This document shows, piece by piece, positions 5,145 through 64,000 of a stretch of DNA of 64,000 bases. This DNA comes from a bacterium (GTDB taxonomy: Bacteria; UBA10199; JADFYH01). The translations under genes and the position numbers were made by a program. Under the pieces are notes generated by a model. It did no database searches. It had not been told where the DNA came from and saw only the letters and a program-made list of their open reading frames with translations. Each line of letters opens with the position of its first letter. The first letter of the stretch is position 1. The DNA lies in NCBI GenBank assembly GCA_046346885.1, contig JAXMHI010000001.1, positions 291,390 to 355,389 on the forward strand, given 5' to 3'.

Positions 5145-8100
5145 TTATCGGGGTGGCTCCTCCGAAGAACCATTTTCCGCTGTCGTCGCATTTTGGGAGG
5201 GGGCTTCGGCCCTTGCGATCTGCTCTAACATGTCCACAATTCCTCGAAATTGCGAGATATTTTGTAAGATCTGGTTTCTGGCGGCGGTGTGCTCGTTCAG
5301 CAAGGTTCGCAGACCTTGCGACAAGGAGGAAAGCGCCTCTTGCGGGTTTTGAAGCATCTGGATGGCGGCGGTGCGAAGGAGGTTCGTCAGGGCCACTTCC
5401 GATTCTACCCTCGAGCGGATGCGAACGTAGGCCCGGGTGAGCGCCTGGAGATTGGCCATCGACCCTTGTTCCACCGCCCTTCGCGCCTCGACGACGCGGG
5501 GATCTTCGTTTACCTGTCGGCATTCGAAGGCAACGAGACGTTGAATTTCTGCCACTTCCCGTTGGTCCGTTTCCGAAGTTTCATCGGTCGACCAAGTAAG
5601 GCGGCTTCGCGCCGCCACTACCCTGGGGTCTTGATCGGGGTTTTCTAGGGTCTGAACGATTTGCAGGTAGAAAGCGCGGGTGGCGATTTCCCTTTCCCGG
5701 ATCACCGTACCGAAAAGTTGGTCGGCGGGAACCACCGCCCGGATCGACCCGACCCGCTGGGCCCGGTCGGTGCTGTGGGTTTTGTTGAAGGTGACCGCGC
5801 GCCTTCCGACGACGGTCGAATAGATGCCGGGGCGATCTCCTATTAATTCGTTCTGGACGTTCCCGATTGCGATCGTCAGCTGTTTTTCCAAGGCCTCACG
5901 GTTTTGGTCGTTCGCTCCTTCCAAGGCCCGGCGGGCTTGTTGGACACGGGGATCGTTCTCAATATTGGCTTGAATGGCTTCCACTTCGTCCCGCACGTCG
6001 CTGCGCTCGACGATGTTGGCGTTTAGGTCACCGCCGACCACTTGCACCTTCGTGCCCGTCACGGCGACGATGCGGTGCTGCTCGATGGCTTCCACCTGGC
6101 GGATTTGTTGGCTGACCACCACCATGGAGCCGCCCACCAGGTTCCCCAAGTTGACGAGCACGATGGGGCCACGGTGCAAGGTCATGGACCGGGCGATCTG
6201 GGCGCCGCCGTCGGAGAGTTGTCGCATGAGCATCGAAAGGGGGTCCGCGTTGAATCCGGAGAAACTGCCCAAAACAAGGACGGGCATTCGGCCGTCCGCC
6301 TTCCGCAGGGCTTGTGCGAAAATTCGCGAATCCGTGGGGGTCAAGGGTCCGATCGGCGGGGCGATAACCAAAGTGGGTACGCCGTTGATTTGTTCTTCCA
6401 CGACTCGGATGCTGGGTTGCTGGCTGGCGACTCCGCTGGCCCGCTTTTCATCCCCGTTCACCGTGGGCCATCTGTCTCGAGTGATGCCCTTGAAGAGATC
6501 GGTCAGATGTCTCCAGAAAGGCAGCGCAGGCGGCGATTCGGGATCGCGAAACGCCTCGATAATCGCGTCGATGTCACCTTTTCCGCCGTTCACGATCGTT
6601 CGAATTTCGTCGCCGACGGTGCGGCCTTTCTGGGTCTCTATCGATAAAATGTCTCGCTCCGAGGTGTTCTCCGCTCCGATGGGGCGGGGCGTGACGAATT
6701 GCCCCCGGGAGGTGTAGCTGTAATAATGGTGCAAATTCAACATATCCAAGGCTTCTTGGAGGTTCTTAGCGCGCAAGATTCCTTCCCCATTCAACCCATG
6801 GATCTCGTCGTAACCGGCGAGAGAAAGAGGGCCGTTGGGGTACCATTGCCGGGACCGGAGGGGGATATCGAGGAAGTGCAACTTGCTTAAGATGGCGACG
6901 GTTTGGGCGTCAGGACCCGTGAGCGGGGTAGAGCCCCGATCGGTGTAGATGTTGATGCCGCCCGTATCCATGATCATATTGGCGAGCGCGATCCAGTAGG
7001 CCATGCCGCCGATGTTGACGTTGTCGATGATTGTGTTGATGCGGACGCCGTGCGTATGGGCGTTGAGGATGATCTCGCGGGCCGTCGAGGCGATGGCGTC
7101 CAGGTTTTCGGAGCCCGTTTCCAGCGCGATCTTTGCGCCGTAAGAGGAAGCGACCCAGTCGATGTCGATGCCTTCCCGTCGCGCGAGTTTGATCGCCGCG
7201 TTGACGCGGCCGCATTCCTCGGCTGATAAAGAGCCCCGGTTGGCGCCTAAATCTCCCACGATCACCACTCGTCGTGCTTTTTCCCCGTTGAAAAGGTTCG
7301 ACTCGCCGATTCCGATCATCACCGCCGCCCGGTTGCCTCCGGCGGGGCGCGAGACGGGTTTTAACCGGGCCTGGTTGTAATCCAATTGTCCGGATTGATC
7401 TTTCCTCATCGAGGCGGGATCCAAGTCGTATTCCACGAAGGTCGTCGGGTCGTAAGAATCGATCGGCGGAGGGATCGTGGAAACGGAAGGCCTTTCCCCA
7501 TTTACTTCCTTCGGACTGGAAGAGGAGGAGGGAGGAGCGATATTAAAACGTTCCCTAAACCGAGTCGCCACGTCCCTCAATATTTCGGGGATCCGGTAAG
7601 CCCAGGTGCCGAAGCGGCTGAGGGCCTTGAGCTCCTTGCGCTCGACCGGCGTGGCGGTGCGGATCGGGATATCCGCGGGAGACCATTGGTTCGGCTCGAA
7701 GACCGTTTCGTTGTTCTCCACCCATCGGTCGTATTGACCATTTTTCAAAAGCACGTCGCGTTCCGCCACGGGCCCGTTCGCCGCTTCGCGGACTTGGGCG
7801 CGCACCACGTTGTCCAGAGTCGCCACGTAACGGTAGGTGGTCGGATTGGTGATGCGGACCAGCACGGTTCGATAGCCTTCATCGCGGCTTAGGTCCCGCA
7901 ATCGGGCCTTCACCACCACTTTTTCAAGGCCCAGTCCCAAGAGACGGTCGTGGTGCCGGACGGCCAGTTGTTCCGCATAATGGACGGCTTCCGCGTCGGT
8001 GACGTCGAGGATCGGTTGGATATTGAGGAACATCCGGTTCCAGCTGGGACGGTCTTTCTTGTCCCGCGCTTTCAATGAGCGCCCCATCGATTCGGCCAGG

Positions 8101-62837: not shown

Positions 62838-64000
62838 ATGATTTCCGACGCTTCCGTTCTTACCCGTTTTTCCCAGGCGAGCCTCTCTCAGGCCGCTTCC
62901 GACCTCCATCCGACCCAGGCGCTCGTCGACGGCATGGTGAGCCGCTTTGTGGAAGAAACGGGCGATTGGCGTTCGCTGGCCGCCATGGCGACCGGTTCCC
63001 TTTTCTATCGTTTCGGCCGATTGGGCACCTTGGCGCTCGCCTCTCGGGCGGGACAAGCGGCACCGATTTTACAAGTTGCTTCTTACGGGATTGGGTTGGC
63101 TTCCGAAGTGACGGCGTTTCAGGCGGTGAATGACGTTTTATCTCCCGTAGGGGCGAACCTTGTGTTCGCCCAAAATGGGGGGGAAGGGCGAGCACAAGGT
63201 TCGCCCCTACATTCATCGTATTGGGACCGCTGGCGCACCTCCTTCGTTCAATTCGGTCTCCTCAAAATCGGCGGCGCGGCGGCGTTGGGCCAAAATCCTT
63301 TTATGCAGCATCTCGCACAAGATTCGGCGATGGTGGCCGGCCACCAGGTCACCGCGCGGTTGGGCTGGACGAATGCTCCCGATGGAAATCTCGCGGAGCA
63401 ATTCCTCCACGCGGAGGTTACCAATTTGCAAATGGGGTTAGGGATGGGCCTGCTCCACCAAGCCGCACCGGGTCTCGCGGCGTTGGAGAGGGGATTGGAT
63501 CTTCACCTCCGTTCTGCCGAAAACATTTCCCGCGGAAATTATTTTTCACCCCGAGCGCCGTCGCCGGCCTTCGCTTTGGCGTATGGATCCGAAACTCGTC
63601 CCGCGCCTGTTTCCGATTTCGGAAGGGGAATTGAGGGTCCCACGATCTTGAAGATGGAAGGAGTTCCGAGTGAGCGACTCTTCCCGCGGTCCCTCGAGAG
63701 TTTGATGCCGCCGGAGAAGAGCGGTGTGGAAATTACCGATCCCATCGTTTATCCGCCGGAAATCGAGCGAATCCTTCGATCCGTCGAAGAAAGAATGCGC
63801 CAGCCGGGATATTTCGAGGGGAGGCGGGAAGAGCTCTTGAACAAGCGGCCTTTAGATGATGAGACGGATACCCTTTTCACCTATCAACTCTTAAACCTCG
63901 GACGGCGCTTGGAAGCCCGCATTCCCGGAGCGTCGGTTCAAGTGGTAGACGCGGAAGTCCTTTTTGAAAAATCCTTTTCGCGCGATGAGGAGATCGATCC
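62838..64000 (+). CDS. Fourth family member, 3'-truncated by window edge (not in the ORF track)
   Basis: Manual translation MISDASVLTRFSQASLS...DGMVSRFVEETGDWRSLAAMATG...AEQFLHAEVTNLQMG...; open to the window end. Confidence 0.88.
   Translation, partial: MISDASVLTRFSQASLSQAASDLHPTQALVDGMVSRFVEETGDWRSLAAMATGSLFYRFGRLGTLALASRAGQAAPILQVASYGIGLASEVTAFQAVNDVLSPVGANLVFAQNGGEGRAQGSPLHSSYWDRWRTSFVQFGLLKIGGAAALGQNPFMQHLAQDSAMVAGHQVTARLGWTNAPDGNLAEQFLHAEVTNLQMGLGMGLLHQAAPGLAALERGLDLHLRSAENISRGNYFSPRAPSPAFALAYGSETRPAPVSDFGRGIEGPTILKMEGVPSERLFPRSLESLMPPEKSGVEITDPIVYPPEIERILRSVEERMRQPGYFEGRREELLNKRPLDDETDTLFTYQLLNLGRRLEARIPGASVQVVDAEVLFEKSFSRDEEID
63147..63210. repeat. GTAG-type REP doublet (inverted pair) inside a CDS
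   Basis: GTAGGGGCGAACCTTGTGTTCGCCC-N14-GGGCGAGCACAAGGTTCGCCCCTAC; arms are 24/25 complementary. Confidence 0.8.

Follow-up and report, generated by a model that had tools for sequence, protein, structure and literature searches.

What does one conserved domain do at the head of unrelated proteins? The question is raised by a 64,000-nucleotide stretch of contig JAXMHI010000001.1 (assembly GCA_046346885.1, positions 291,390 to 355,389), hereafter referred to as the window, in which four genes share an N-terminal domain of about 200 residues (the N-domain) followed by different C-terminal parts (the cargoes). The DNA is assigned to UBA10199, a candidate phylum known from metagenomes only; magnetosome (organelle) gene clusters have reportedly been found in some UBA10199 genomes. 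An earlier note on this sequence had described the four genes as a candidate polymorphic effector family, with the N-domain as a module for trafficking or membrane translocation. Here, we describe the family across the genome. It is a very large protein set made mostly under a sigma-28-type promoter, and we tentatively propose, from sequence and structure prediction, that its members may be substrates of a type III system for secretion (T3SS) that carry a membrane-inserting anchor.

Size, Spread and Cargoes of the Family

Positions without a label are in window numbering, and labels of the form G000:C denote contigs of the window's own assembly, which comprises 2.76 Mb in 25 contigs and is 82% complete. 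A scan of the contigs with an N-domain peptide pattern gave no match, and the family was recovered by genome profile search instead, with a hidden Markov model (HMM) that matched the assembly about 95 times. Six-frame analysis yielded 76 genes with a full-length N-domain and 13 fragments, certain of which hold several in-frame stops. The 76 genes, which are frequently found in tandem arrays, sum to 73,142 aa, or 7.9% of the assembly DNA. Together with the HMM E-values obtained in the window (about 1e-114 to 1e-131), this number of full-length copies excludes a chance likeness.

The N-domain is N-terminal in all 76 proteins, after 0–30 residues, and the cargoes fall into 64 BLASTP clusters. The picture of one N-terminal domain on diverse cargo thus extends from the four genes to the whole genome, and the objection that there might be only a few copies without cargo diversity fails. 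Paralogs without an N-domain exist for 19 of the 76 cargoes, and N-domain-only proteins are also present. In public data, 768 protein clusters matched the profile when 1.84 billion representative proteins were searched; among the 150 matches listed, the match nearly always started within the first ~55 residues. The domain is unevenly distributed among 40 relatives, with about 75 copies in the organism's own genus, 43–75 per genome in one sister genus, 11–14 weaker matches in another genus, and none in three genera of the same family.

Cargo domains were tallied with Pfam over 107 members, the majority of which have no Pfam domain in the cargo. Those that do carry Pkinase, FHA, GGDEF, PAS, HATPase_c, Response_reg, GerE, XRE-type helix-turn-helix (HTH), Sigma70_r2, RNA polymerase (RNAP) alpha-CTD, helicase, HEAT, SIR2, P450, aminotransferase, FGE-sulfatase, amine oxidase, CDP-alcohol phosphatidyltransferase or KS/AT/MaoC domains. 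Sigma70_r2 and RNAP alpha-CTD cargoes occur in members of other genomes, and a member with a sigma-70-like cargo lies at G000:C10:7225-10329 (+). A type I fatty acid synthase (FAS I) member from a relative, which has fungal or CMN-like domains, is 3930 aa long and contains five cysteines. On its 38-kb contig (L146, Logan SRR26348421), this N-domain–FAS I gene is followed by a gene for a 137-aa ACPS and then by another family gene.

A constant N-terminus, hypervariable C-termini, tandem arrays and pseudogenes are what one would expect of a classic polymorphic toxin system, in which an N-terminal trafficking domain is joined to a toxin at the C-terminus, with an immunity gene alongside, in the service of interbacterial antagonism. 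The constant N-terminal part and variable C-termini of the LXG, Rhs, CDI (contact-dependent inhibition) and MIX systems are found here; a toxin with its immunity gene is not. No classic toxin domain (nuclease, deaminase, ADP-ribosyltransferase, lipase or pore-former) is among the top Pfam families of the 107 members, many of which carry regulators and enzymes. There are no immunity-type neighbours, the 52 non-family open reading frames (ORFs) directly downstream all being singletons, in line with the lack of a dedicated immunity gene seen in the window, and the genome has no type VI secretion system (T6SS) sheath gene. Since toxin domains and immunity genes are both missing, this is not a polymorphic toxin system; that reading, very improbable in our estimate, is largely refuted, and the label of polymorphic effectors in the usual sense is not supported.

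A Sigma-28-Type Promoter and Its Regulon

Enrichment of k-mers upstream of the family genes pointed to CAACTT. In extended form, CAACYY-N14-CGA precedes 55 of the 76 family genes (72%), compared to 31 of 799 controls (Fisher p 3e-47), with a constant spacer in 55 of 59 promoter instances and a median distance of 54 nt from the motif end to the start codon. The promoter in full reads GCAACTTT-N11-nCCGATAA. Sigma-28 (FliA) class 3 promoters read TAAAGTTT-N11-GCCGATAA, and the family promoter, with its two-part motif, N11 spacer and GCCGATAA-type -10, is by its sequence one of sigma-28 (FliA/WhiG) geometry and -10 element. CAACTT-N14-CGA occurs exactly three times in the window, once before each intact copy, and the same promoter precedes six of six family loci from five other genomes in three genera. 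A sigma-54 promoter, suggested by the sigma-54 activators adjacent to the family genes, was rejected, as sigma-54 sites precede only 2 of the 76 genes.

When the whole genome was scanned with a position weight matrix, 131 sites reached 16 bits or more, and family genes or fragments follow 61 of these. A wider HMM, made with all 76 members, recruited no extra regulon genes, only pseudogene fragments. Among the non-family genes of the regulon are a fatty-acid hydroxylase and a second class with products starting M-x-P-P (57503-60247 in the window, C15:14391, C23:50883, C12:152304, C1:243416 and C1:250027). Clusters of non-family regulon genes lie beside family genes at G000:C23:48-75 kb and C1:243-254 kb; they include genes for OmpA-domain paralogs, a 1626-aa Cys-rich repeat protein with DUF4215, and lysine-free proteins to which no function could be assigned.

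The N-Domain

The N-domain has no match in NCBIfam or, even at E ≤ 5, in Pfam, and its profile matches no PDB sequence, consistent with its having been considered an unnamed family at the outset. In the AlphaFold2 (AF2) model, computed from a 59-row alignment (predicted local distance difference test score (pLDDT) 88, predicted template modelling score (pTM) 0.77), the first ~24 residues have low confidence and are followed by seven helices at residues 25–41, 44–68, 72–104, 122–142, 148–168, 179–203 and 206–231. A Foldseek search with this model against the PDB gave a best E of 0.59 and TM scores below 0.3. Colicin, Bcl-2, diphtheria T-domain and translocator folds are therefore unsupported, and the comparison proposed at the outset, with colicin, T3SS translocator and pre-toxin domains, brought out no likeness. 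The N-domain is most probably a lineage-specific, semi-hydrophobic seven-helix module with a predicted new fold.

Across the 76 aligned members, polar or small residues occupy the conserved columns of the core helices, and the variable ones are hydrophobic and hardly ever charged. Conserved residues include R58, R61, E90, K137, N147, H152, D156, H163, Q182, H185, E187, N190, Q192 and H201. Residues 44–219 were compared with a soluble control of 79 SctN/FliI ATPases. The variable columns had a mean Kyte–Doolittle hydropathy (KD) of +0.47 in the N-domain and -0.99 in the control, and were charged in 11% and 34% of cases, respectively; for conserved columns the mean KD was -0.55 in the N-domain compared to 0.01, so that the pattern is the reverse of that in the soluble proteins. 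The maximum 19-residue hydropathy nevertheless had a median of 1.19 and never exceeded 1.8 in 226 sequences, compared to a median of 2.46 for polytopic proteins of the same genome. Because the variable columns are hydrophobic and yet the hydropathy maximum lies below the level of transmembrane (TM) helices, the N-domain is neither an ordinary TM nor an ordinary soluble domain, but a semi-hydrophobic bundle with a polar core. A membrane-related role, as originally proposed, fits the conservation pattern, although the helices fall short of ordinary TM hydropathy.

The polar core might instead serve a sensory function, with the bundle using its conserved His, Glu, Asp, Gln and Asn residues to sense a ligand, a metal or a cue from the membrane and so control the attached cargo, like PAS, GAF, MHYT or MASE domains. 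The N-domain does stand N-terminal to kinases, GGDEF, histidine kinase (HK), HTH and sigma domains, and R58, E90, N147, H152, D156 and E187 are invariant polar residues of the helices. However, real sensor families diverge, and the 76 paralogs are about 50–70% identical in the supposed sensor despite their unrelated outputs. Most cargoes are either non-signalling (ACC-like, FAS, P450, aminotransferase) or have no Pfam match, and some proteins consist of the N-domain only. Neither the strong TM helices nor a profile match of an integral-membrane sensor was found, and no Pfam sensor module matched at E ≤ 5. We consider a sensor quite unlikely. The strong conservation of the head on unrelated cargo suggests one shared partner or environment.

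Between N-domain and cargo lies a linker in which two short motifs, FA.A and phi-phi-M-S, are present in the window copies and recur family-wide, as anticipated from three of the four genes. An expectation-maximisation motif search fused both degenerate motifs into one, with a score of 808 compared to ~645 for shuffled sequences; because of this difference, we regard the linker motifs as real but poorly defined.

N-Terminal Signals and Composition

The first 30 residues of the family proteins are rich in serine (21.6%, compared to 7.9% in the background) and poor in lysine (1.3%, compared to 6.9%). The N-terminus bears a conserved SVLSRFS motif of a kind that is atypical for type III signals. 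None of the 76 members has a Sec-like stretch, compared to 27% of the background, in agreement with the lack of a Sec signal noted for the four genes, and TM-like segments occur in the cargo of only five of the 76, compared to 27.5%. Cysteine is avoided (0.19%, compared to 0.68%; p 1e-20), as is lysine in the cargo, where K/(K+R) is 0.25 compared to 0.54 (p 1e-25). Both biases persisted when aligned segments were compared with paralogs in this genome that have no N-domain (p 0.001 for Cys and 0.002 for Lys), and both are found in members from other genomes.

The lysine bias extends to other genes behind the same promoter, those without a signal peptide often being nearly lysine-free, while regulon genes with signal peptides have an ordinary composition. 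Conversely, 29 ORFs outside the family have a K/(K+R) under 0.1, and the promoter motif precedes 11 of these, compared to ~2.6% of other non-family ORFs.

The main rival to type III export is that the N-domain acts as a tether or scaffold in or on the inner or an internal membrane of the producing cell, gathering enzymes and regulators made late under sigma-28, such as kinases, transcription factors and proteins of lipid synthesis; the recurrent, conserved linker motifs may then be cleavage sites that free the cargo. The bundle has a hydrophobic exterior and polar core, as such a tether might, and the cargoes are typical cytoplasmic bacterial domains, one of them sigma-70-like. A leaning towards lipids is apparent (an ACC-like cargo, FAS I with ACPS after it, CDP-alcohol phosphatidyltransferase, and the fatty-acid hydroxylase of the regulon), and the remaining regulon consists of envelope proteins. 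On the other hand, no helix in the 226 sequences reaches the inner-membrane hydropathy of this genome, which makes insertion of the signal recognition particle (SRP) type doubtful, and a tether would leave unexplained both the serine-rich disordered N-terminus with its conserved motif and the avoidance of cysteine and lysine relative to cytoplasmic paralogs. A tether thus accounts for the cargo types but not for the hydropathy or the composition bias, and we regard it as somewhat unlikely.

The Sigma Gene and the Type III Secretion System

The genome's best FliA/WhiG-type sigma gene is situated within a T3SS cluster at about 234–261 kb of G000:C12, together with SctV, SctJ, SctL, SctN and SctT-like genes, an FHA protein, a pair of SycD/LcrH-type chaperones and proteins that are rich in Gly and devoid of Cys. 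The single FHIPEP gene of the genome scored 610 bits as SctV and 529 bits as FlhA; being the sole such gene and scoring as SctV, it leaves the assembly without a flagellum. The sigma gene is close to SctV in 21 of 21 relatives tested, and among 41 relatives, 39 have an SctV that passes the curated threshold. The type III ATPase has its nearest named relative, with 79% identity, in a metagenome-assembled genome (MAG) labelled UBA10199. VirB4 is absent from this genome and its distribution is uncorrelated with the family, and the genome lacks an ATP/ADP translocase, a marker of energy parasitism. The T3SS, which appears to be SctV-type and non-flagellar, is the only specialised export machine found in the organism. 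The check for a co-occurring secretion system, proposed at the outset, thus found one T3SS in the same genome, linked to the family through the sigma-28-type promoter and the cognate-looking sigma gene in its cluster.

Two paralogous genes for SycD/LcrH-type TPR chaperones (G000:C12:258184-258861 and 260141-260854) flank a gene for a 412-aa protein rich in Gly, Pro, Asn and Gln. This arrangement suggests translocator-like substrates, and the type III machine may therefore not be "needleless".

The N-domain might alternatively be an address tag that marks proteins for a pathway or destination not yet described and involving neither the T3SS nor a membrane; examples would be an organelle bounded by protein, outer-membrane vesicles or a novel means of secretion. 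The new fold, which no known family matches, would suit such a tag, as would the conservation among paralogs, suggestive of one common partner, and the composition signature, suggestive of a special environment. However, no candidate machine was found, and the sole regulatory or genomic link detected is the T3SS sigma factor. This explanation seems unlikely.

Proposed Type III Export and Membrane Anchoring

Type III export combined with association with a target membrane provides the best fit, because of the promoter, because the sigma gene lies within the T3SS cluster, and because of the signal-less, Ser-rich, disordered N-terminus, the scarcity of TM segments in the cargo, the sub-threshold hydropathy and the avoidance of cysteine and lysine. 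The mechanism that we infer, from the reader of the promoter through export and the target membrane to the type of target cell, would be as follows. The FliA/WhiG-type sigma factor of the T3SS cluster would switch on about 130 promoters, of which roughly half precede family genes. Export would be signalled by the disordered N-terminus, which is rich in Ser, poor in Lys and equipped with the SVLSRFS motif, and the helices would be kept under the hydrophobicity that would route them into the producer's inner membrane. Once exported, the bundle would insert into or bind the target membrane, with its hydrophobic variable face to the lipid and its conserved polar core inward, while the C-terminal cargo would remain on the cytosolic side of that membrane. 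Sub-threshold hydrophobicity is likewise seen in membrane substrates of other T3SSs (PMC6110835). A paucity of lysine is known from toxin A chains that need to evade ubiquitination (PMC4030972), and in Myxococcus a type III-like machine acts on bacterial prey (PMC12075869); with these precedents, both a eukaryotic and a bacterial target are possible.

Several observations weigh against type III export of the family. SctV is broken in the assembly, and no secretin was found at its 82% completeness; the T3SS secretin model TIGR02516 found nothing in this genome and only generic secretins in relatives, which makes it non-discriminating. The T3SS and the sigma factor are also present in genera without the N-domain family, so that their co-occurrence is necessary but not discriminating. 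The sigma factor would be paired with the promoter by geometry only, and promoter-like sites within the T3SS cluster itself (G000:C12:243587, 245794 and 256903 (+), one of them in front of a protein of 197 aa that is rich in Gly and devoid of Cys) share both boxes with it but are 2 nt longer in the spacer. Half of the regulon consists of Sec or lipoprotein-type envelope proteins, and the sigma factor may therefore drive a programme of a general kind, for the envelope or for development. Among the cargoes are many cytoplasmic regulators and enzymes of bacterial type (GGDEF, PAS, HK, response regulator, GerE, sigma-70 region 2, RNAP alpha-CTD), and one cargo is the 3930-aa FAS I with its neighbouring ACPS gene; as T3SS substrates, these would be odd or very large. 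No conserved chaperone gene lies beside the family genes. Finally, spontaneous insertion is harder for a seven-helix bundle with a polar core than for the two-helix hairpins of known injected membrane proteins.

A wider version of the export model, which we consider improbable with its parts taken together, would make the whole sigma-28-type regulon of ~130 promoters a giant type III effector arsenal against a eukaryotic (protist) cell. The arsenal would include the 76 N-domain proteins and the signal-less, nearly lysine-free class exemplified by 57503-60247. By avoiding lysine and cysteine, the proteins would escape being destroyed through ubiquitin, as AB-toxin A chains do (PMC4030972), and the N-domain would be a new self-inserting anchor on a pathogen-controlled membrane, holding lipid-building enzymes (ACC-like, type I FAS, diacylglycerol-kinase-like), kinases and regulators. 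If so, a strategy like that of the chlamydial Inc proteins would have been independently invented in a phylum without known host association.

The Copies in the Window and Their Surroundings

The features of the window are listed in Table 1. All four N-domain genes were found where the earlier note had placed them, and alignment reproduced its consensus string; copy 2, however, is not an intact gene in the assembly, as two 1-nt deletions split its N-domain among three frames. Its pieces were aligned one by one and the gene was left unmended. N-domains from different proposed subfamilies are 53–57% identical, and copy 1 shares 80% identity with the C-terminal part of copy 2; with a DNA identity of 57–70%, the two subfamilies are real.

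Table 1. Positions of N-domain genes, promoters and associated genes in the window.
Feature	Position	Strand	Remarks
Copy 1	5145-12668	-	2507 aa: N-domain and ~2.3-kaa cargo with biotin carboxylase (BC) and ACC_central; Pfam, NCBIfam and PDB BC matches
Copy 1, N-domain (residues 1-219)	12012-12668	-	HMM match (E 1e-114), AF2 model (pLDDT 88)
Copy 1, linker	11853-11948	-	Two short motifs, FAMAM and VSMSV
Copy 1, promoter core	12736-12758	-	CAACTT-N14-CGA, 68 nt 5' of start codon; 27.2 bits
Copy 2, first frame	55192-55557	-	N-terminal third of N-domain, ended by 1-nt deletion
Copy 2, second frame	55082-55330	-	Short middle piece of N-domain
Copy 2, third frame	48270-55187	-	C-terminal half of N-domain (HMM positions 89-226) and 2.2-kaa cargo
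Copy 2, promoter relic	55618-55650	-	-35 GCAACTTT retained; -10 CCAAAA, not CCGAAA; 17.3 bits
Copy 3	55769-57301	-	ATG 57301; 510 aa; N-domain 56621-57301 and 280-aa cargo with weakly GNAT-like fold
Copy 3, promoter core	57332-57354	-	
Copy 4	62838-64000	+	Start 62838 or ATG 62799; N-domain 62838-63512; cargo without assigned family; extends past window
Copy 4, promoter core	62719-62741	+	
526-aa ORF	3465-5045	-	100 nt 3' of copy 1; K 1, R 24; no Pfam match
Non-family regulon gene	57503-60247	+	914 aa; K 4, R 79, C 1; motif 57377-57401 (+)

The frameshifts of copy 2 may be assembly artefacts. ArgJ (G000:C12:234526-235527) and SctV (G000:C12:235579-237712) are each broken into two frames, and the profile match of SecA (G000:C12:231553-233349) covers only the first 562 of 814 positions, so that indel errors in the assembly are likely; such errors may also be the cause of its 82% completeness. 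The degenerate -10 element of copy 2 argues mildly for true decay.

The cargo labels given in the earlier note held up to different degrees. The ACC-like label of copy 1 is borne out by BC and ACC_central, although this is not a full acetyl-CoA carboxylase (ACC), as neither Biotin_lipoyl nor Carboxyl_trans was matched at E ≤ 0.01 in the Pfam scan and the biotin carboxyl carrier and carboxyltransferase parts are thus missing. Copy 1 contains 57 Lys, 230 Arg and 4 Cys. That it might be the housekeeping ACC was dismissed, since two BC paralogs without an N-domain exist elsewhere in the genome. The HTH of copy 2 (XRE-type) corresponds to an HTH_26 match below threshold. The cargo of copy 3 has no Pfam match even at E ≤ 5, and its GNAT-like label has weak support from the fold: the AF2 model (pLDDT 85) gave a best Foldseek E of 0.02, the matches being VipF, a GNAT protein of Legionella, and further GNATs. 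In two homologs of this cargo from other sources (P0169 and P0171), the GNAT-like part is present in two tandem copies, and a far more divergent N-domain follows an extra N-terminal extension of ~130 aa. Copy 4, which is open for 1161–1182 aa in the full assembly, has a cargo without an assigned family.

The 526-aa ORF behind copy 1 is possibly co-transcribed with it, and the motif of 57503-60247 lies back-to-back with the copy 3 promoter. The product of 57503-60247 has a Pro/Ser leader (MPPVTSVS...), no Sec signal, and a semi-hydrophobic C-terminal third. Another ORF, 38300-40114 (-), is almost lysine-free (K 3, R 37). At 1011-1721 (-) there is a lysine-rich 236-aa ORF (K 29, R 6) with a weaker promoter motif at 1866-1890 (-) of 16.3 bits. 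The surroundings are dense in signalling genes (12844-16578 (+), 18969-20549 (-), 20563-23595 (-) and 60852-62660 (-)), which encode a 1244-aa Ser/Thr kinase–TPR–GAF–sigma-54 activator fusion, a GAF–sigma-54 activator, a kinase–TPR protein and a kinase–PEGA protein.

Implications

If the export model is correct, no family of homologous effectors associated with a type III system would be larger; it would bring a new membrane-anchoring fold, and some 130 genes would have come under a flagellar-style sigma-28 switch for late substrates that had been put to a new use. A first clue from function would also be gained on how the candidate phylum UBA10199 lives. Even if the proteins stay intracellular, one semi-hydrophobic module that organises 8% of the coding capacity, comprising lipid-synthesis enzymes, kinases and transcription factors with systematic avoidance of lysine and cysteine, would be an undescribed design of a sub-proteome. 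The promoter and the composition signature provide simple, transferable rules by which the remaining set can be found in related genomes.

Comparison with Known Systems

The chlamydial Inc proteins are likewise a genome-filling set of T3SS substrates without a Sec signal, in which a membrane-inserting hydrophobic region on the N-terminal side is joined to a diverse C-terminal part that faces the cytosol. The common part of the Incs, however, is a bilobed two-helix motif of ~40–60 aa, whereas the domain described here is a conserved seven-helix bundle of 200–220 aa and has no 19-residue segment with a KD above 1.8. The organism also differs from chlamydiae in its lack of an ATP/ADP translocase and in the UBA10199 MAG origin of the nearest relative of its type III ATPase, and export is putative here.

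The Salmonella SPI-2 effectors SifA, SseJ and SspH2 share an N-terminal WEK(I/M)xxFF translocation domain of ~140 aa, and thus also combine one conserved N-terminal domain with unrelated T3SS effector cargoes. The SPI-2 set has no sequence similarity to the present family, numbers about ten members rather than 76, and is neither semi-hydrophobic nor served by a dedicated sigma-28 promoter. The PE/PPE proteins of mycobacteria and the LXG proteins of Firmicutes resemble the family in having a helical N-terminal domain of ~100–200 aa with variable C-termini, and in a huge expansion to several per cent of the genome. However, they are substrates of a different, type VII secretion system, the LXG toxins have immunity genes, unlike the family described here, and the corresponding Pfam models (PF00934, PF00823 and PF04740) did not match the N-domain even at E ≤ 5.

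A parallel in hydropathy is with T3SS membrane substrates and translocators, whose helices lie slightly below the threshold for inner-membrane targeting and which are shielded by class II (SycD/LcrH) chaperones (PMC6110835), a type also encoded in the present T3SS cluster. The known substrates of this kind have one to three such segments and number a few per genome. In the Bordetella effector BteA and related toxins, according to PMC8100071, an N-terminal four-helix bundle acts as a lipid-raft-targeting membrane-localisation domain, and so also directs injected cargo to a target membrane. That domain is smaller (~130 aa, four helices) and binds lipid peripherally, and Foldseek found no PDB chain similar to the N-domain.

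The promoter differs from sigma-28 class 3 promoters in its -35 element (GCAACTTT), in belonging to a regulon of ~130 promoters, and in its occurrence in an assembly without a flagellum. It shares with them the -10 element CCGATAA, the N11 spacer and the T-rich end of the -35 element, and class 3 promoters control late substrates that a type III machine exports, as would the family promoter in the export model.

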